Positions 10,654 to 35,907 of a stretch of 64,000 bases of DNA are shown piece by piece. The stretch comes from an uncultured Acidobacteriota bacterium. Lineage in GTDB: Bacteria > Acidobacteriota > Vicinamibacteria > Vicinamibacterales > Fen-181. Under the pieces are notes generated by a model. The model saw only the letters and a list, made by a program, of their open reading frames with translations, did no database searches and was not told the origin of the DNA. The translations under genes were made by a program, and so were the position numbers. The stretch spans positions 196,326 through 260,325 of the forward strand of contig CAVZMW010000003.1 in the NCBI GenBank assembly GCA_963776495.1, given 5' to 3'. The first letter of the stretch is position 1; each line of letters begins with the position of its first letter.

Positions 10654-11850
10654 ATGTTTTCGGCCTCGCACGATCCGCTCGCGGCCTGGCGCGACGAATT
10701 CCCGATCCTCCACCGCACGGTCTACATGATCAGCAACTCGCTCGGCGCGATGCCGCGCGACGCCGCCCGCTCGCTGGCCGAGTACGCCGACACGTGGGCG
10801 ACCCGGGGCGTGCGGGCGTGGGAGGAGCGCTGGTGGGAGATGGCGCTCGAGGTCGGCAGCGCCGTCGCCGCCATCGTCGGGGCCCCCGCGGGGTCGGTGT
10901 GCATGCACGACAACGTGACGTCGGCGCAGATGGCCGTGCTCTCGTGCCTGAAGCCCGAGGGGCGGCGTCGCACGATCGTCTGCACGGCGGCCGACTTCCC
11001 GTCGGTGATCCACCTCTACCGCGCCCAGGTCCCGCTCGGGTTCGACCTGCGCGTGGTGCCGGCGGGGCCGGACCTGAACGTGGACGAGCAGCGCCTGGTG
11101 GAGGCCATCGACGAGACGACGCTCCTGGTCGCCTTCTCGCACGTGCTCTTCCGGACCTCGTTCATCGTCGATCCGCGGCCGGTGGTGGAGCGCGCGCGCC
11201 AAGTCGGAGCGCTGACGCTGCTCGACGTCTACCAGTCGGCGGGGATCGTCCCGCTGGACCTGACCGGGCTCGGCGTCGACTTCGCGGCCGGCGGCTGTCT
11301 GAAGTGGCTGTGCGGCGGGCCGGGCAACGCGTTCCTCTACGCGCGCCCCGACCTGCTCCGGACGCTCCACCCGCGCTTCACCGGCTGGCTGGCGCTCACC
11401 CGCCCCTTTGCCTTCGACATCGACGAGGGCGAGCTGCGCGAGGACGCGTGTCGCCTGATGAACGGCACGCCGCCCATCCCGGCTTACTACGCCGCGCTGC
11501 CGGGTCTCCGGATCGTCGGCCGGGTTGGCGTGGACCGGATCCGCGAGCAGTCGAAGCGGCTGACGGCGCGCCTGCTCGAGCTGGTGGATCGGCGGGGGTG
11601 GCCGACGCCCACCTCGCGCGACCCGGAGCGGGTGGCGGGCACCGTCGCCATCGACGTCCCCGACGCGCTGCCGGCCTCGCGCGCGCTCAAGGCACGCGAC
11701 GTCCTCATCGACTACCGGCCGAAGGTCGGCATCCGGGTCTCGCCGCATTTCTACAACACGTTCGAGGAGATCGAACGCCTGGTCGACACTCTCGAACACG
11801 TGCTCGCGGAGCGAGCGTTCGGCGAGGCGCCGCCCACGAGGGTCACCTAG
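10654..11850 (+). CDS. kynU: Kynureninase-like class V PLP enzyme
   Basis: YMISNSLG, WATRGVRAW, LLDVYQS, GGCLKWLCGGPG (PLP lysine). Confidence 0.75.
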   Translation: MFSASHDPLAAWRDEFPILHRTVYMISNSLGAMPRDAARSLAEYADTWATRGVRAWEERWWEMALEVGSAVAAIVGAPAGSVCMHDNVTSAQMAVLSCLKPEGRRRTIVCTAADFPSVIHLYRAQVPLGFDLRVVPAGPDLNVDEQRLVEAIDETTLLVAFSHVLFRTSFIVDPRPVVERARQVGALTLLDVYQSAGIVPLDLTGLGVDFAAGGCLKWLCGGPGNAFLYARPDLLRTLHPRFTGWLALTRPFAFDIDEGELREDACRLMNGTPPIPAYYAALPGLRIVGRVGVDRIREQSKRLTARLLELVDRRGWPTPTSRDPERVAGTVAIDVPDALPASRALKARDVLIDYRPKVGIRVSPHFYNTFEEIERLVDTLEHVLAERAFGEAPPTRVT

Positions 11851-25767: not shown

Positions 25768-27865
25768 ATGAGCATCATCCTTCATCGAGGTCCGGTCCTG
25801 GCGGCGCTGGTCGCCGCGGTCATCGGCACCGGGGCGGCCATCGAGGCCCGGAAGCCGGCCCCGCCGGCGGCTGCGCCGGTTCCGCCGCTCGCGGCCGCCT
25901 ATCGTTCTCCGCAGGAGGTCAACGCGGCGCTTCTCGCCATCAACAAGGCCAACCCCGCGCAGACGGCGCTGCACCGGATCGCCACGAGCCCCGGCGGCGT
26001 CGAACTGATGGTGCTCGAGATCGGCCCCGAGGCGGGCAAGACCGCCCGCCGAGTGCCCGCCGTCTTCGTGGTGGCCAACCTCGAGGGGGTGCTGCCTCTC
26101 TCCACAGAGGGGGCGCTCGCGCTCGCCGACCGCTTGATCTCCAGCCCCGCCGCGGCGAAGAACCTCACGTGGTTCATCCTGCCGAACGGCAACCCCGACG
26201 CCGCCTCCCGGTACTTCCGGAAGCCGCTCGTCGCCGACGAGCGGAACGGGAGCAAGTGGAACGACGACATGGACGACCAGACCGACGAGGACGGGCCGGA
26301 CGACCTCGACGGCAACGGTCTCATCACCGAGATGCGGGTGAAGGATCCCGCCGGCGAGTGGATCCCGGTGGAGGGCGAGCCGCGCCTCATGCGCAAGGCC
26401 GATCCCGCGAAGGGCGAAAAGGGCCTCTACAAGCTCTACTCCGAGGGGATCGACAACGACGGTGACGGCGAGTACAACGAGGACCCGCCCGGCGGCACCA
26501 ACATCAGCATCACGTTCCCGCACCTCTTTCATCCCTGGACCTCCACCGGCGGCCGGTGGCCGGGCAGCGAGCCCGAGACGTTCGGGATCATGAAATTCGC
26601 GATGGACCACCCCGAGATCGCGATGACCTTCGCGTTCGGGTCCACGAACATGTGTCTGCAGCCGCCGGCCGGCGGGCGCCAGGGCAGCTTCGACGCCACC
26701 GCCATCAAGATCCCCGAGCGCATCGCGCCGCGCCTGGGCGCCGACCCGAACCGCACGTACTCCATGAAGGAGATCGTCGAGATGGTCCGGCCGCTCGCGC
26801 CGCCGGGATTCGAGATCACCGAGGGGGTCATCGCGTCGTTCCTCGGCCTCGGCGCGGTGGTGAACCCGCTCGACGACGACCTCAAGTTCTACAAGGAGCT
26901 GTCGGACCAGTACAAGGAGTTCCTCAAGACGGCCAAGCTGGACGCGAAGCGGCTCGATCCGGCGCAGCCGAAGGACGGATCGTTCGAGCTGTGGTCTGTA
27001 CTACCAGCTCGGCGTACCCGTGTTCTCGATGGATCTCTGGACGCTGCCCGACGTGAAAGCCGACGACAAGGAGAAGTCTGGCATCACGTTGGAGTCGCTC
27101 GAGGCGATGGCGCCCGACGCGTTCGTGGCGCTCGGCGAGCCGAAGATCGCGGCGTTCCTGAAGGAGATCGGCGCGCCCGACTCGATCAAGCCCGCGATGC
27201 TCGTCGAGGGCGTCAAGTCCGGCAAGATGACGCCGAAGCAGATGGCGGGGATGCTCAAGCAGATGCCGAAGCCGAAGGACTCGTCGGGCGCGGACCCGAA
27301 GCAGAAGGCGCTGCTGGCCTTCAGCGACAAAGATCTGCAGGGCAAGGGCTACGTGAACTGGGCCCCGTTCAAGCATCCCCAGCTCGGAGACGTCGAGATC
27401 GGCGGGATGGTGCCGTTCGCCGACACGACGCCGCCCGCCTCGATGGTCAAGCCCCTGCTCGACGGCCAGCTGCCGTGGGTGCTGAAGCTGGCCGAGAAGC
27501 TGCCGCGCCTCAAGATCCTGAAGAGCGAGGCGCAGGCGAAGGGCGCCGGCGTCTACGCGCTCACGTTGTGGGTCGAGAACGCCGGCTACCTGCCGTTCCC
27601 GACCGCCATGGGCCGGAAGAACCTGCACGTGCCGCCGGCCATCGTGCTGCTCGGCGGAAAGGGCGGCGCGAAGGACGTCACCTTCCTCTCAGGCCGCACC
27701 CGCACGACCATCGACGCGATTGACGGCGGCCGGAGCGCGAAGCTCGAGTGGCTCGTGCAGGTCGCGCCGACGAAGACCGGGATCGACGTCGCGGTCGAGT
27801 CGGCCAACGCGGGGGGTGACACCGGGCGGATCAACCTGGGCGGCGGGCAAGGAGGTGCGAAATGA
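25768..27865 (+). pseudogene. M14-fold metallocarboxypeptidase homologue, single frameshift near 26995-26998, zinc ligands degenerate
   Basis: ORFs 25768 and 27020 join as FELWS/YYQLGVPVFSMDLW if one base is removed (about 698 aa); co-linear with the downstream paralogue. May be a sequencing error rather than a true pseudogene. Confidence 0.75.
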
Positions 27866-29703
27866 GCGCGCGTCACGGGATCGGCACACTCACGCTGGCG
27901 GCGCTCGTCGCCGCCTCCTCGCTGCTCCTCGAGGCCTCGCCGCAGCGGGCCAGGCCCGTCGCGAAGCCCGCAAACGATCCGCAGGCCGCGGCACCGGCGA
28001 CCCAGTCGCAGCCCATCACCGTCCCCCTCAGGTTCGACCGCTACTACACCTACGAGCAGGTCGGCGAGGCGCTGCGGGCGCTGCACGCCGCCTACCCGCA
28101 GTTGACGACGCTCGACGTCGTCGGGAAGAGCGAGGAGGGGCGCGACATCTGGGCGATGACGGTGAACAACCCGAAGACCGGCGCCGCGCTCGACAAGCCG
28201 GGCGTCTACGCCGACGGCAACATCCACGGCAACGAGATCCAGGCGAGCGAGGTCTGCCTGGCGCTGCTCAACCGGCTGCTGACCGGCTACGGGCAGAACG
28301 AGGAGATCACGAGGCTGGTGGACCGCAACGCCTACTACGTGATCCCGACGGTCAACGTCGACGGCCGCTACCACTTCTTCCACGACCCGAACGATCCCAA
28401 CTCGAGCCGGAGCATCCGGATCCCGAAAGACGACGACCGCGACGGGCTGGTTGACGAGGACCCGCCCGACGATCTCGACGGGGACGGCAACATCTGCATG
28501 ATGCGGAAGAAGGACCCGTTCGGCCAATACAAGACCGACCCCGAGGATCCGCGGCTGATGGTGCGCGTCAAGCCGGGCGAGAAGGGCGAGTGGACGATCC
28601 TCGGCGAGGAAGGGATCGACAACGACGGCGACGGGAAGCTGAACGAGGACGGCGAGGGCTACGTGGACGGGAACCGGAACTGGGGCATCGACTGGGCGCC
28701 GCCCTACGTGCAGTCCGGGTCGGGCGACTACCCGTTCGAGGCGGCGGGCATGCGCGCCATCGCGAAGTTCCTCATGGATCGCCCGAACATCATCGTCGTC
28801 TTCGCCTTCCACAACAACGGCGGGATGTACCTCCGCGGACCGAGCACGAAGGCCGAGGAGCCGATGAATCCGTCCGACGTCGGCGTCTACGATCTGCTCG
28901 GCAAGAACTTCGAGAAGATCGTGCCCGGGTACCGCTACCTGGTGTCGTGGAAGGACCTCTACCCGACCTACGGGGACTTCACCGACTTCACCGACAACAT
29001 GATCGGGTCCTACAGCTTCACCGGCGAGCTGTTCGTCACCGAGTCGGAAACCTATCGGCCGCCGCCCAAGCCGGGTGCCACCGTGGCGCCGGCCGCGGAC
29101 ATCATGGACATGATGGACGCTGTCAACGACCAGGAGCGGGAGCGCCTGAAATTCAACGACAACGTGGCGCAGGGCGACCTCTACAAGCCGTGGAAGCCAT
29201 TCAAGCATCCGCAGTTCGGCGACATCGAGATCGGCGGCTGGGTGAAGATGAGCTCGCGGCTGCCGCACCCGTTCATGCTGAACGACCTGGTGCATCGCAA
29301 CGCGTCGGCCGTCCTGTTCGCGGCCGCCCAGACGCCGGTCATCTCGCTCGACGTGCTGACGCCGGTGAAGGCCGGCGCGGACCTCTACAAGGTTCGCGTC
29401 CGGGTGATCAACGGGGGCTCGATCCCCTCGCTGAGTTACAACGCGGTGCAGCGCAAGCTCCACCCGCAGGACATGCTGAAGGTGTCGGGCCCGGCGGTGA
29501 AGGTGGTGGCCGGCGGACGCGTCTCCGGCGTGCCGATCGAAACCGCCGCCTACAAGGCAAGACGCCCGGAGCTGCAGTTCCTCCAGGTGCCCGGCGACGG
29601 CAAGCTCGAATTCGAGTTCCTGGTGTCCGGCAAGGGCGAGCTGACCATCGCCTACCAGTCGCTCAAGGCGGGGAAGACCGCCAGGACGGTAGTCCTGCAG
29701 TAG
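27862..29703 (+). CDS. Secreted M14 family zinc carboxypeptidase with DxDxDG Ca-binding loops
   Basis: GNIHGNE (HxxE), NVDGR, FAFHNNGG, GELF; ATGA overlap with the upstream gene. Confidence 0.92.
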   Translation: MSARHGIGTLTLAALVAASSLLLEASPQRARPVAKPANDPQAAAPATQSQPITVPLRFDRYYTYEQVGEALRALHAAYPQLTTLDVVGKSEEGRDIWAMTVNNPKTGAALDKPGVYADGNIHGNEIQASEVCLALLNRLLTGYGQNEEITRLVDRNAYYVIPTVNVDGRYHFFHDPNDPNSSRSIRIPKDDDRDGLVDEDPPDDLDGDGNICMMRKKDPFGQYKTDPEDPRLMVRVKPGEKGEWTILGEEGIDNDGDGKLNEDGEGYVDGNRNWGIDWAPPYVQSGSGDYPFEAAGMRAIAKFLMDRPNIIVVFAFHNNGGMYLRGPSTKAEEPMNPSDVGVYDLLGKNFEKIVPGYRYLVSWKDLYPTYGDFTDFTDNMIGSYSFTGELFVTESETYRPPPKPGATVAPAADIMDMMDAVNDQERERLKFNDNVAQGDLYKPWKPFKHPQFGDIEIGGWVKMSSRLPHPFMLNDLVHRNASAVLFAAAQTPVISLDVLTPVKAGADLYKVRVRVINGGSIPSLSYNAVQRKLHPQDMLKVSGPAVKVVAGGRVSGVPIETAAYKARRPELQFLQVPGDGKLEFEFLVSGKGELTIAYQSLKAGKTARTVVLQ

Positions 29704-29715
29704 CGGGCGGGCGCT

Positions 29716-31206
29716 TCACTTTCCGGCCGGCGCCAGTCGCTTCAACCCGTCGCGAACGGCGGATTCGAGCGTGAACCCGTACGAGCCCGAGAAGCCGACG
29801 ATGCGCTCGCGGACGATCCCCTCGCCGTCGAGCACCAGGGTCGTGGGAATGGGCCGCACGCCAAACAGCCTGGCGATCCGCCCGCTGCCGTCCAGCGAGT
29901 GGTGCCACGTCATCTTCTCGTCGGCGATCGCGGCGCGCCAGGCGGCGGCGTCGGTGTCGATGCTGACGCTCAGCAGGACCACCGGCTGCGCCGCGTACTT
30001 CTTCTGGATACCCCGCAGAAACGCGACTGTCGAGCGGCACGGGCCGCACCAGCTGGCCCAGAAGTCGATCACGACGACGTTCCCGCGCAGGCTCTCGAGG
30101 TCGAAGTGCAGCCCCTCGCGTGTCACGAGGCTGAAGTCGGGCGCGAAGTTCTCGCGCGCCCGGCGCGGGTTGGCGATCATCCGCTCCGCGTCCTTCGCGG
30201 CGGCGCCCTCCGGCGCGGCGGCGAGGTACCCGCGCAGTTGTTCGATGCCCGCGGCGGCGTCGCCCGCCTTGAGCAGTACCATCCCGAGGTTGTAGCGGGC
30301 CATCTGGAAGCCGGGGTCGAGTTCGAGCGTCGCGCCGAATTCTCGCGCCGCCGCTTTCAGGTCGTCCGCGCCGGGCGGCTGCTTCTCGCTGGCCCGCGAG
30401 AAGAGCGCAACCCCCTTGGTGTTGTGCGCGACCGCCTTCTCGCCGGCGGACGCCGCGCACTCGATGGTCTTGTCGCACGCCTCGAGCACGCTCTTGTAGG
30501 CGTTCAGGCCATCGTAGGCCTGCGCGAGCCCGAGGTAGCCGCGAGCGGTCGGGTTTTCCTTGCCGAGCGCCTTCTTGAAGACCTTGACGGCGTCGTCGTA
30601 CTGCCGCATGCGGAGCAGGGCGAAGGCTTCTTCCATCGCGGGGCTCAACGGTGCGGCCGACGCCGACTCGGGGCCGGCCTCCCCTCCACCCGAGGGCGGC
30701 GCGGCGGACGGCAGGGCTCCCGCGGCGGACACGACGGTGAAGTCGAACACCTTCGTGGCGCGGTCGCCCGTCAGCCGGTTCACGGCTTCCACGCGGAGCG
30801 TGCACACCCCAGGCGAAGTCCGCGCGGGCAAGGTGAACGTCCGCCAGACCCCCCAGTTGGTCGATTGCGTCGGCTCGTTGAACTCGGCCGTCTGGTCGTA
30901 GAGGCTGCGGCCCTCGGCGGTGGCGACCTGGAGGTGGAACATGAGGTCCACCCGCCCCTGGCGCGGCGTGCCATACGTCTCGACGTAGAGCCAGACACGG
31001 TCACCGGCCAGGAACTGCGTCTTGACGACGAAGGTGCCCCAGCCGCGCACCTCGGAGGCCGTCGTCACCCTCCCGAAGCGGACCGTGCCCGTGGACGGAG
31101 GGCCGGAATCTCTCTGCTGCCCGTCCGCCTCGATGACGTCTCCGGCGGGCCAGAGCACTGCGAGCGTCAAGACCGCCAGCGCAGCCAGCCATCGCGCTCG
31201 TCCCAT
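29716..31206 (-). CDS. Exported protein with TPR repeats and a C-terminal TlpA-like thioredoxin domain
   Basis: Signal peptide, TPR-like helices (ARYNLGMVLLKAG), APDFSL...VVVIDFWASWCGPC...IPTTLVLDGEG. Confidence 0.88.
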   Translation of the reverse strand: MGRARWLAALAVLTLAVLWPAGDVIEADGQQRDSGPPSTGTVRFGRVTTASEVRGWGTFVVKTQFLAGDRVWLYVETYGTPRQGRVDLMFHLQVATAEGRSLYDQTAEFNEPTQSTNWGVWRTFTLPARTSPGVCTLRVEAVNRLTGDRATKVFDFTVVSAAGALPSAAPPSGGGEAGPESASAAPLSPAMEEAFALLRMRQYDDAVKVFKKALGKENPTARGYLGLAQAYDGLNAYKSVLEACDKTIECAASAGEKAVAHNTKGVALFSRASEKQPPGADDLKAAAREFGATLELDPGFQMARYNLGMVLLKAGDAAAGIEQLRGYLAAAPEGAAAKDAERMIANPRRARENFAPDFSLVTREGLHFDLESLRGNVVVIDFWASWCGPCRSTVAFLRGIQKKYAAQPVVLLSVSIDTDAAAWRAAIADEKMTWHHSLDGSGRIARLFGVRPIPTTLVLDGEGIVRERIVGFSGSYGFTLESAVRDGLKRLAPAGK

Positions 31207-31335
31207 TTGCAGCCTCCTCGGATCGATCCCGCGAGTTCCGGACCGCACGGGGAGAGTCTAACCCCATGCGCGCCCAGGGCGATCTGACGAATCGTCATGA
31301 AGGCGTTACGCCGGCCGGGCTCCAGCCCAGCCAAG

Positions 31336-31378
31336 GCCGTCGGGTTCTATAATGGACGTCGTTCCGCGCAGGTCCACT
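31336..31378 (+). promoter_or_regulatory. Conserved promoter/leader block with TATAAT (31348-31353); second copy at 35145-35187
   Basis: 22/23 identical core GCCGYCGGGTTCTATAATGGACG, about 36/43 overall. Confidence 0.7.
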
Positions 31379-31396
31379 CAAACCGGAGGCGAACCC

Positions 31397-31612
31397 ATGA
31401 TCTACATCTTCGGCAAGGACACCTGACCGTACACCCTGGCCGCCCGTGAGGAGTACGGCAGGCGGCGCGTGGAGTTCGAGTACCTCAACGTCAAGAAGGA
31501 CCGGGCGGCGTTGGAGCGCATGCTCGCCTTGACCGACGGACGCCGCGACGTGCCCGTGATCGTCGACGGCGCCAAGGTCACGATCGGATTCGGGGGCTCT
31601 TGAGGGGTCTGA
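31397..31612 (+). CDS. Glutaredoxin-like selenoprotein with two in-frame UGA codons (Uxx-star type), 71 aa
   Basis: Not in the ORF track. GGAGG RBS; MIYIFGKDT-U-PYTLAAREEY...RRDVPVIVDGAKVTIGFGGS-U-GV-stop. UGA codons at 31424 (CPYx active-site position) and 31601; hairpins follow both (31427-31458, 31606-31640). Confidence 0.88.
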
Positions 31613-31701
31613 CCGGGCTGCCGGGCGCAGCCCGCAGACCGCTGGGCGCGGCGCGTGACGCCTCGCTCGCATCCGGCTCGGCACTCGAGGGCGGCGGCAC
31701 C

Positions 31702-34389
<2,688 letters not shown>

Positions 34390-34397
34390 GGGGGCGA

Positions 34398-34413
34398 ACG
34401 CATTATAATGCGT
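34398..34413. promoter_or_regulatory. Perfect 16-bp palindrome ACGCATTATAATGCGT giving TATAAT on both strands
   Basis: Lies between the divergent kinase and peroxiredoxin genes. Confidence 0.65.
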
Positions 34414-34468
34414 CCCTCATCTCCACATCCGAATCTCGTCTCAAGGTCCCAGGAACTTGAGGAGCGGC

Positions 34469-35041
34469 ATGTTGTACCTCTTGCTGACGGCAGCCATTCT
34501 CGCCGGCACGCCGGCGGGCGTCCCCATCCCGGCGGCCGCGGGGCCGGCCGGGCCAGTCTCGCTCGAGCCGGGCGACCCGGCGCCCCCATTCACGCTCAAG
34601 GGCTCGGACGGGCGGACGTACCGGCTCCAGGACTTCCGCGGCAAGCGGGCGGTTGTCCTCGCGTGGTTCGCCAAGGCGTCTTCAGCTGGTTGAACGGCAG
34701 AATGCCAGTCGCTCCGTGTGAGCGGCGACTCGATTCGAGCATTCGACGTCGTGCACTTCGCGGCGAGCACCGACAAGCCGGAGGACCTCACGGCGTTCGC
34801 CCAGAAGATCGGCGCAGACTACCCACTGCTCGGCGACCCGACCAAGGAGGTCGCGAAGGCGTACGGAGTCGTCCAGGACGGCCAGGCGTACGCCGTCCGG
34901 TGGACCTTCTACATCGGGATCGACGGGAAGATCCTCTACGTCGACAAGGCCGTCAGTGCCGCCAACGCCGGCAGGGACATCGCCCAACGACTCGGGGAGT
35001 TGGGCGTCGCACGAAGGGCCGCACCCAGAGTGTCGAAGTAG
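34469..35041 (+). CDS. Selenocysteine-containing AhpC/TSA (BCP/PrxQ-like) peroxiredoxin
   Basis: ORFs 34457-34693 and 34718-35041 are one frame separated by TGA 34691-34693 at the peroxidatic position (FAKASSAG-U-TAEC); hairpin at 34707-34730; GAGGAG RBS before ATG 34469. Confidence 0.88.
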
Positions 35042-35232
35042 CCCACCGCCGCACGTCGGACCGCGCGCCCACTTGTCCGCCACTCCCCTGTTCGGACACC
35101 ACCTTGATGTCGCCGGCCTCCATCTGCGCCCTGGCACGCTCGACGCCGCCGGGTTCTATAATGGACGCGGCTCCCCGCAGTTCCGCTTGAGTGTGATTGG
35201 GAAGCTGTCATGAGAACATCCAGCGTCGTCCC

Positions 35233-35907
35233 ATGATCGAACTGACCGGCGTCAGCAAGCAGTTCGACGGGAAGCGGCGGGTCACCGCGCTCTCGGCGGT
35301 CGACCTCGCGGTCGGCCGGGGCGAGCTGGTGTCGATCGTCGGGCCGTCGGGGTCCGGGAAGTCGACGCTCCTCAACCTGATCGGCGGCCTGGATCGACCG
35401 ACGACCGGCGAGATCCGTATCGACGGCCAGCGGCTCGGCGGCCTGTCGGACGACCAGCTGACGCTCATCCGCCGCGACAAGCTCGGGTTCATCTTCCAGT
35501 TCTTCAACCTGCTCCCGTCGCTCACGTGCCTGGAGAATGTCGCGCTGCCGCTCCATCTTCGGGGATGGCCCCGGCGAAAGGCGGTGGCGCGGGCGCGTGA
35601 ACTGCTGGAGTTGGTCCAACTGGCGCCGCGCCTCGAGCACACCCCCGACGAACTCTCCGGAGGCGAGCGCCAGCGAACGGCCATCGCCAGGGCGCTCGCG
35701 GTCTACCCGCCGATCCTGCTGGCCGACGAACCGACCGGCAACCTCGATACCGGCACCGGCGCCGAGATCCTCGACCTCATCCGGGATCTCCACGGGCGCC
35801 TCGGCGCCACGGTCCTCATCGTGACGCACGACCTCGCCGTGGCCCGCAGCTGCCCGCGCACGCTCACCATCCGCGACGGCCGGGTGGTCGGGGACGAACG
35901 CCGATGA
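35233..35907 (+). CDS. ABC transporter ATP-binding protein (LolD/MacB-like)
   Basis: GPSGSGKS, LSGGERQR, LLADEPTGNLD. Confidence 0.95.
   Translation: MIELTGVSKQFDGKRRVTALSAVDLAVGRGELVSIVGPSGSGKSTLLNLIGGLDRPTTGEIRIDGQRLGGLSDDQLTLIRRDKLGFIFQFFNLLPSLTCLENVALPLHLRGWPRRKAVARARELLELVQLAPRLEHTPDELSGGERQRTAIARALAVYPPILLADEPTGNLDTGTGAEILDLIRDLHGRLGATVLIVTHDLAVARSCPRTLTIRDGRVVGDERR

Follow-up and report, generated by a model that had tools for sequence, protein, structure and literature searches.

We analyzed a window of 64,000 nucleotides from an uncultured Acidobacteriota bacterium (contig CAVZMW010000003.1), and describe here its stretch at positions 29716-35041, in which three genes for thioredoxin-fold proteins lie around a gene for a membrane Ser/Thr kinase. 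The stretch probably represents four separate transcription units and not a single redox operon, and within it the kinase gene and the adjacent gene for a selenocysteine (Sec)-containing peroxiredoxin (Prx) would form a conserved, self-contained two-gene module. The genes were defined from the listing of open reading frames (ORFs) with and without TGA read-through, and were then compared with Pfam and NCBIfam. The layout obtained was as follows.

29716-31248, minus strand: TPR and TlpA/ResA-like thioredoxin, 510 amino acids (Pfam)
31397-31612, plus strand: glutaredoxin-like selenoprotein (Grx), 71 amino acids with two Sec (Pfam; NCBIfam NF041114)
31702-34389, minus strand: Hanks-type Ser/Thr kinase, 895 amino acids (Pfam Pkinase and PD40)
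34469-35041, plus strand: putatively exported selenoperoxiredoxin of the BCP/PrxQ type (Prx), 190 amino acids (Pfam AhpC-TSA)
from 35197: MacB-type ABC operon (Pfam ABC_tran, MacB_PCD and FtsX)

An earlier reading, made from the sequence only, had pointed out three thioredoxin-fold genes within 5.3 kb. All three were confirmed by Pfam, and the coordinates and sequence features given in that reading were correct.

The ORF of Prx, when read through the TGA at 34691, matched Pfam AhpC-TSA (PF00578) with 96.7 bits. The active site reads G-U-T-A-E-C, so that the U-T-A-E-C site noticed in the sequence-only reading is present. The conserved ATG at 34469, which has GAGGAG 5 nt upstream, was taken as the start of Prx. 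The TTG at 34457 was rejected as a start, because two relatives (L001 and L002) have TCG at this position. The two elements relevant to Sec incorporation, including the putative Sec insertion sequence (SECIS), are located as follows.

34691-34693, plus strand: UGA codon (Sec75) at the peroxidatic position of Prx
34708-34726, plus strand: SECIS hairpin of Prx, GUCGCUC-CGUGU-GAGCGGC

Protein searches with Prx gave mostly full-length Cys forms with 50-66% identity, and also two C-terminal fragments of 107 amino acids (84-94% identity) and one Joint Genome Institute (JGI) product with W at the Sec site. The DNA behind the fragments and the JGI product has TGA at the same codon. The alignment of the Prx family was used to scan metagenomes, and the best 80 of 569 loci were added, which made 87 sequences in all. 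The Sec codon is TGA in 73 of the 87 sequences and TGC or TGT in the other 14, and the reading frame stays intact downstream of the TGA. The hairpin of 7 bp begins 15 nt after the UGA, with the consensus GUC(G/A)CUC, loop CGUGA/U and GAG(C/U)GGC, and is near-invariant among the Sec forms. Across 62 distinct Sec sequences, 98.4% of the cells were paired, compensatory change was detected in three pairs, and 15 cells were altered on both sides; one pair changed from G-C to A-U in 11 sequences and was unpaired in none. The covariation score was reached by none of 500 shuffles. In the Cys forms, the codons of the hairpin drift, and the hairpin is degraded or lost. When the SECIS regions were folded as single sequences, their energies were not better than those of shuffles (z = 0.76 and 0.03), and the support for the SECIS comes from the comparative data instead. 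With Rfam at the gathering threshold, the window as a whole gave zero matches, with no SECIS family and not even a tRNA.

That the in-frame TGAs of Prx and Grx are true stops, pseudogene lesions or sequencing errors is suggested by the fact that gene callers split these ORFs. This explanation is extremely improbable, since the Sec codon of Prx is TGA in 73 sequences that come from many samples and encodes Cys in the others, with the frames intact, the hairpins of both Prx and Grx covary, and a curated NCBIfam selenoprotein model matches Grx. The sequence-only reading had called Prx a selenoprotein and had named a sequencing error at TGA 34691 as the way in which it could fail. The presence of TGA at the same codon in the relatives excludes such an error. 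Because the TGA recurs, the hairpin covaries and the Cys forms lose the hairpin, a pseudogene is excluded as well, and on this comparative evidence the UGA of Prx is very probably decoded as Sec.

The AlphaFold model of Prx showed a predicted local distance difference test (pLDDT) score of 90.2, with a helix at residues 73-84 that begins near U75, and residues 1-30 disordered. Foldseek placed Bcp1, AhpE and BcpB at the top of the matches, with target-normalised TM-scores of 0.84-0.89 for Bcp1 and AhpE, and the sequence matches to solved structures agreed with this result. Sulfolobus Bcp1 (3drn) and Mycobacterium tuberculosis AhpE (1xvw) are the top matches of Prx in both sequence and structure and resemble it in the conserved Arg and in the position of the catalytic residue, where helix alpha-2 starts, although the sequence identity is only 27-29%. 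The residues around the active site are A68-x3-S72-x2-U75, C79 and R144. Position 72 is Thr in most relatives, and T76, C79 and R144 are invariant across the family. As compared with the BCP/PrxQ-AhpE proteins, Prx has the resolving Cys at i+4 and not i+5, Sec in place of Cys, Ala in place of Pro, and a predicted signal peptide.

None of the curated NCBIfam selenoprotein or BCP models met its cutoff on Prx. The scores were 68.8 against a cutoff of 140 for E. coli-type BCP (NF006960), 25.6 against 270 for PrxU (NF040737), and 16.6 against 298 for Prx-SUH (NF045827). The last two scores rule out the identification of Prx as PrxU or Prx-SUH. A class of selenoproteins named 'Prx, TxxU' is listed in a review (PMC13188914). 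Prx resembles the Sec peroxiredoxins, namely PrxU of Eubacterium acidaminophilum and the 'Prx, TxxU' class, in the use of Sec for the peroxidatic Cys, the T/S-x-x-U motif and the AhpC/TSA fold. It differs from them in its BCP/AhpE-like, monomer-type fold, its predicted export, the U-x-x-x-C arrangement, the lack of the motif Pro and the tie to a kinase gene.

In Prx, residues 1-13 are hydrophobic and residues 14-34 are rich in Pro and Ala, as the sequence-only reading had described when it suggested export with a Pro/Ala linker. The family N-termini agree with this suggestion, because nearly all members have a signal peptide or a lipobox there, and we infer that Prx is exported. Lipobox-like N-termini, such as LLAIAGC and AAGLSC, were observed in place of an ordinary signal peptide in the kinase-linked Prx of six loci (L055, L062, L068, L072, L075 and L076), which suggests membrane-tethered forms of the selenoperoxiredoxin.

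In the Prx tree, all of the kinase-linked sequences fell into one clade (40 rows), with an SH-aLRT support of 99. Among the informative loci, which are those with enough upstream sequence, the kinase gene lies divergently upstream of Prx in 32 of 34 inside the clade and in none of 27 outside it. Of the two exceptions, L042 carries a convergent match to the propeller domain of the kinase on the downstream side of Prx, and L055 shows a similar layout, with an upstream sequence too short for scoring. The other exception (L078) is a contig on which an unrelated gene replaces the N-terminus of Prx. No third conserved gene was found beside the kinase and Prx among 18 long loci. The pairwise identities of Prx and of the kinase correlate with each other (r = 0.62, 171 pairs). 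The clade is also distinguished at the active site. The Pro of P-x-x-x-T-x-x-C is absent from the window Prx, which has Ala68, and position 68 is Ala, Ser, Thr or Val in all 40 members of the clade and Pro in 46 of the 47 other sequences. The sister groups outside the kinase-linked clade (within L028-L093) keep the active-site Pro and consist of 35 TGA and 12 Cys forms. Neither a kinase neighbor nor any other conserved neighbor was found beside them. The tie between the kinase and Prx genes, which the sequence-only reading had drawn from one locus, is thus borne out by the conservation of the pair across many diverged loci. These results point to a conserved two-gene module of many soil bacteria, putatively for envelope stress. 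The pairing was not found in the literature searched, and a clade of exported Sec-Prx without the active-site Pro and with a tie to a TolB-propeller kinase appears to be undescribed there.

The kinase matched Pfam Pkinase with 166.7 bits together with PD40 repeats, and its catalytic motifs are intact (GEGGMG19, ALK39, HRD132 and DFG152). One transmembrane helix at residues 308-330 is preceded by RRRR, and the outer part, with about 560 residues, is built from PD40 repeats with matches to TolB structures. The protein is predicted to be a transmembrane Hanks-type kinase with a cytoplasmic kinase domain and an extracytoplasmic TolB-like propeller. It is 50% identical over the full length to the kinase next to Prx in L015, as compared with 31% to a paralogue, and the Prx-linked kinases are therefore regarded as orthologues. 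In the region 5583-9672 of L001, a relative with 84% identity, gene calling divides the Prx-linked kinase into two ORFs, one of 452 amino acids with the kinase domain and the other of 318 amino acids with PD40, and a group II intron reverse transcriptase (RVT_1 and GIIM) is encoded just beyond them. The kinase of L001 may be disrupted while its Sec-Prx is intact.

The adjacency of the two genes could also be inherited baggage, that is, a compact divergent promoter passed on together with both genes with no functional interaction between their products. The association may have arisen just once, given that the kinase-linked Prx all belong to one clade. No residue for an interaction was identified, the Cys of the propeller is not present in every orthologue, and these genomes and the loci seen contain very many PD40 kinases, including a paralogue only 6 kb away in L001. 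On the other side, the pair persists down to about 57% identity of Prx and about 51% identity of the kinase domain in varied surroundings with no other shared gene, and the adjacency survives the change of orientation in L042 and L055. The loss of Pro68 in 40 of 40 members is, moreover, a clade-specific change in the active site of Prx itself. From these observations, we regard mere co-inheritance as unlikely and prefer a coupled kinase-Prx module.

The intergenic region between the kinase and Prx contains the following site.

34398-34413: 16-nt perfect palindrome ACGCATTATAATGCGT, made of two overlapping -10 hexamers

TATAAT is located at 34404-34409 on the plus strand, toward Prx, and at 34407-34402 on the minus strand, toward the kinase, whose ATG follows after 12 nt. 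This hexamer occurs 6 times in the 64 kb, as compared with 0.41 expected. The sequence-only reading had described the site as a palindromic double TATAAT shared by the two genes, and the site indeed recurs in relatives. The core of the palindrome, GCATTATAATGC, is conserved in L001. The palindromic ATTATAAT, which gives each direction a -10 box, was detected in 9 of the 30 distinct regions between kinase and Prx, including those of the window, L001 and L016. TATAAT on the kinase strand is more widespread (24 of the 30 regions) and is mostly located 8-15 nt from the kinase start; therefore, the kinase mRNA would be leaderless or nearly so. Most of these regions have a length of 47-97 nt. Transcription of the kinase and of Prx would diverge from this very short stretch between them, in which the -10 hexamers overlap as a palindrome in this lineage, and the overlap may couple the expression of the two genes.

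In peroxiredoxin chemistry, the peroxidatic residue is oxidised by the peroxide, resolved by a second Cys and regenerated by an external reductant. From this general knowledge and the invariant residues, Prx is expected to act as a peroxidase. Sec75 at the N-terminus of helix alpha-2 would react with peroxide to give a selenenic acid, the invariant Cys79 of U-x-x-x-C would resolve it to a selenenylsulfide, and a periplasmic thiol reductant encoded elsewhere would regenerate the enzyme. The kinase would span the membrane once, with its TolB-like propeller in the same compartment as Prx. The conserved adjacency and the shared topology suggest that the two proteins act together in the sensing of, or the defence against, oxidative stress at the envelope.

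A more specific possibility, which we offer only tentatively and consider rather doubtful, is that the kinase and Sec-Prx constitute an envelope sensor of peroxide or redox state made of two proteins, in which Prx is the receptor, the propeller reads its state and Ser/Thr phosphorylation is the output. Prx without the active-site Pro would serve as a fast peroxide receptor, the propeller would sense its oxidised or reduced state through thiol/selenol exchange or by binding, and the ratio of Prx to kinase would be set by the overlapping -10 boxes, which face each other. In eukaryotes, Prx-based redox relays such as yeast Orp1-Yap1 and Prx2-STAT3 use a peroxidase as the peroxide receptor for a signaling protein, and PknB/PASTA proteins are bacterial Hanks kinases with extracytoplasmic sensor domains. 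The proposed pair would resemble these systems in the peroxidase-receptor idea and in the single-pass kinase with an outside sensor, and differs from them in having no conserved relay Cys in the propeller and a TolB-like propeller instead of PASTA domains. If such a sensor exists, it would be a bacterial counterpart of the eukaryotic Prx relays, made from selenium and a Hanks kinase.

Several observations weigh against a functional kinase-Prx unit or limit what can be drawn from it. The N-terminus of the window Prx has no positive charge, unlike most members of the family. A scan of 29600-35300 for a sigma-70 -35/-10 pair gave none, and since no -35 is recognisable, only the -10 boxes point to promoter function. 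When RNA sequencing runs with this sequence were sought, nothing but DNA metagenomes came up, in which no more than 12% of the sampled words were present. The 80 metagenome Prx loci are mutually related and carry no taxonomy, and the counts obtained from them are not counts of independent events. A conserved cysteine of the propeller was rejected as the general route of a redox relay, because Cys435 is present in just 9 of 12 full-length kinase orthologues and 2 of the 12 have no outside Cys whatsoever. Finally, the conserved adjacency shows coupling, not mechanism.

The sequence-only reading had joined the three thioredoxin-fold genes into a redox island, in which a selenium-based electron relay would run from Grx or the TlpA-like protein to Prx. 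The proximity of the genes, the apparent export of both the TlpA-like protein and Prx, and the existence of a TlpA-to-periplasmic-Prx pathway in Caulobacter (PMC3322552) are in accordance with this model. The gene neighborhoods of the relatives, however, are not. In L007 (about 80% identity), Grx lies between def and an ABC operon orthologous to that of the window from 35197 onward, and Prx and the kinase are on a different contig of 1.08 Mb in the same assembly. A def/ThiI neighborhood surrounds Grx in relatives. The gene again follows def in L004-L006, and it is found in other housekeeping surroundings in L009-L012. No Prx, TlpA or kinase was present within 6-10 kb of Grx in L004-L007 and L009-L012. 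Conversely, a TlpA/TPR or Grx homologue was detected at none of the 86 other Prx loci, and neither Prx clade has a conserved thioredoxin, DsbD or other reductant as a neighbor. Each gene, in addition, has its own TATAAT box. Grx has neither a hydrophobic segment nor an export signal and is probably cytoplasmic; because Prx appears to be exported, the two would not share a compartment, and a relay from Grx to Prx is topologically unlikely. Of the synteny in relatives, therefore, the kinase-Prx part held, and the part with Grx and TlpA did not. We consider the electron relay very improbable, and take the redox island to be a chance local arrangement.

As for the reductant of Prx, the ScsB-TlpA-PprX system of Caulobacter crescentus is a known periplasmic pathway of peroxide reduction (PMC3322552). 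It resembles the present case in that an exported Prx needs a periplasmic thioredoxin-like reductant, and a TlpA-like gene is located 3 kb away here. It differs in that no linkage of Prx and TlpA is conserved, the window Prx is a selenoprotein paired with a kinase, and DsbD/ScsB was not seen among the neighbors examined here. Reduction of Prx by a TlpA/DsbD-type protein is plausible by analogy, with no genomic support here.

How the present arrangement came about is suggested by L007. The window also contains two copies of a promoter/leader block.

31336-31378, plus strand: promoter/leader block before Grx, with TATAAT at 31348-31353
35145-35187, plus strand: near copy of the block before the ABC operon, with TATAAT at 35157-35162

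The block of about 43 bp is near-identical ahead of these two unrelated units, and its 16-nt core GGTTCTATAATGGACG is present in exactly 2 copies in the window, as compared with 0.09 expected. The copy before the ABC operon is conserved in L002, the closest relative (94%), which shares the junction of Prx and the ABC operon. The kinase-Prx module was probably placed between Grx and the ABC operon, which directly follows Grx in L007. The two copies flank the module in the window, and the module is absent between Grx and the ABC operon in L007.

The glutaredoxin-like gene encodes a second selenoprotein. Its ORF, when read through the TGA at 31424, matched Pfam Glutaredoxin, and the gene extends over 31397-31612 with the true stop TGA at 31610-31612. 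A second Sec TGA at 31601, three codons ahead of this stop, was found in addition to the one called in the sequence-only reading. The translation thus contains U10 in UPYT and U69 in U-G-V-stop. The elements for the two Sec are as follows.

31424-31426, plus strand: first UGA of Grx, with a hairpin at 31439-31466 read as SECIS 1
31601-31603, plus strand: second UGA of Grx, followed by the codons GGG GTC and the stop, with a hairpin at 31606-31640 read as SECIS 2

Grx matched NF041114, the NCBIfam model of 'UXX-star selenoprotein family 1', with 114.2 bits against a cutoff of 72 and the subfamily model NF041212 with 96.6 bits against 66. Several of its 304 homologues are named 'UXX-star (seleno)protein family 1'. 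In the review cited above (PMC13188914, 2026), the 'distant Grx-like protein 1' family is described as UxxT with 2 Sec, and just metal binding or unknown substrates are suggested as the function of UXX-star family 1. The arrangement TGA-NNN-GTN-stop followed by a hairpin was found at the C-terminus in 9 of 9 loci examined. The fold of SECIS 2 has a free energy of -33.4 kcal/mol, and its stem covaries (GCUGCC/GGCAGC versus GCCGCC/GGCGGC). In SECIS 1, the inner stem stays paired through changes on one side (CGUG/UACG versus CGUG/CAUG), and the Cys forms that are more distant (L009-L011) have lost this hairpin. The first Sec codon is TGA also in L004-L006, and most relatives have CPYT. Each Sec of Grx would be decoded via its own hairpin.

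The identification of Grx as a selenoprotein in the sequence-only reading is therefore upheld by the family score above the cutoff, the two Sec known in this family and the hairpins in relatives. The window Grx shares with UXX-star family 1 the UPYT redox site, the U-G-V-stop terminus, the two Sec and the length of about 70 amino acids, and it differs in nothing essential; close relatives often have Cys (CPYT) at the first position. It is, as judged from these sequence features, an ordinary member of the known family. The window Grx itself had no match among the called genes of the protein collection that was searched. Many shortened entries of Grx in databases begin after codon 10, which points to more forms that have Sec as residue 10. 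In the JGI gene calls P0123 and P0002 (L004-L006 and L008), W stands at the Sec positions, with TGA taken as a sense codon on short contigs, and such W products are a handy marker of hidden selenoproteins in that collection.

Both selenoproteins are known kinds, and the new point is the kinase-Prx module. The selenoproteins mainly correct annotation, as in the Prx gene, which is split at the UGA by gene callers. For the Prx sister groups, the databases show mainly Cys forms, because the Sec forms are split in the same way. The exported Sec-Prx clade is common in soil and sediment metagenomes and almost always back-to-back with the membrane kinase with a TolB propeller. Since 73 of the 87 Prx members have UGA yet appear in databases only as fragments, the use of selenium at the envelope of aerobic soil bacteria may exceed what protein databases suggest. 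To our knowledge, no ligand or partner has been described for the PD40 kinase class, and a fixed Prx partner provides a concrete handle on what one PD40 kinase senses.

The fourth unit, the TPR/TlpA-like protein, matched Pfam Redoxin, AhpC-TSA, Thioredoxin_8 and TPR, and has the active site WCGPC with no Sec. ResA-like was the top NCBIfam match, but it was under the cutoff of that model. A single N-terminal hydrophobic segment (residues 20-42) follows an Arg-rich stretch, and the protein looks like an exported or anchored thioredoxin with Cys only. From the comparison with relatives, its gene appears to have no conserved link to its neighbors.

Two minor features were observed elsewhere in the window. 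Two M14 carboxypeptidase-like genes lie in tandem, and the first of them (25768-27865) seems to switch frame near 27000, where the ORF 25768-27723 encodes the N-terminus of Peptidase_M14 and the overlapping ORF 27020-27865 encodes a C-terminus that resembles the next gene (27862-29703). This switch is either a frameshift or an assembly error. ARAGORN detected a 92-nt tRNA-Ser(UGA) at 11630-11721 on the minus strand, which is the sole tRNA in the window.

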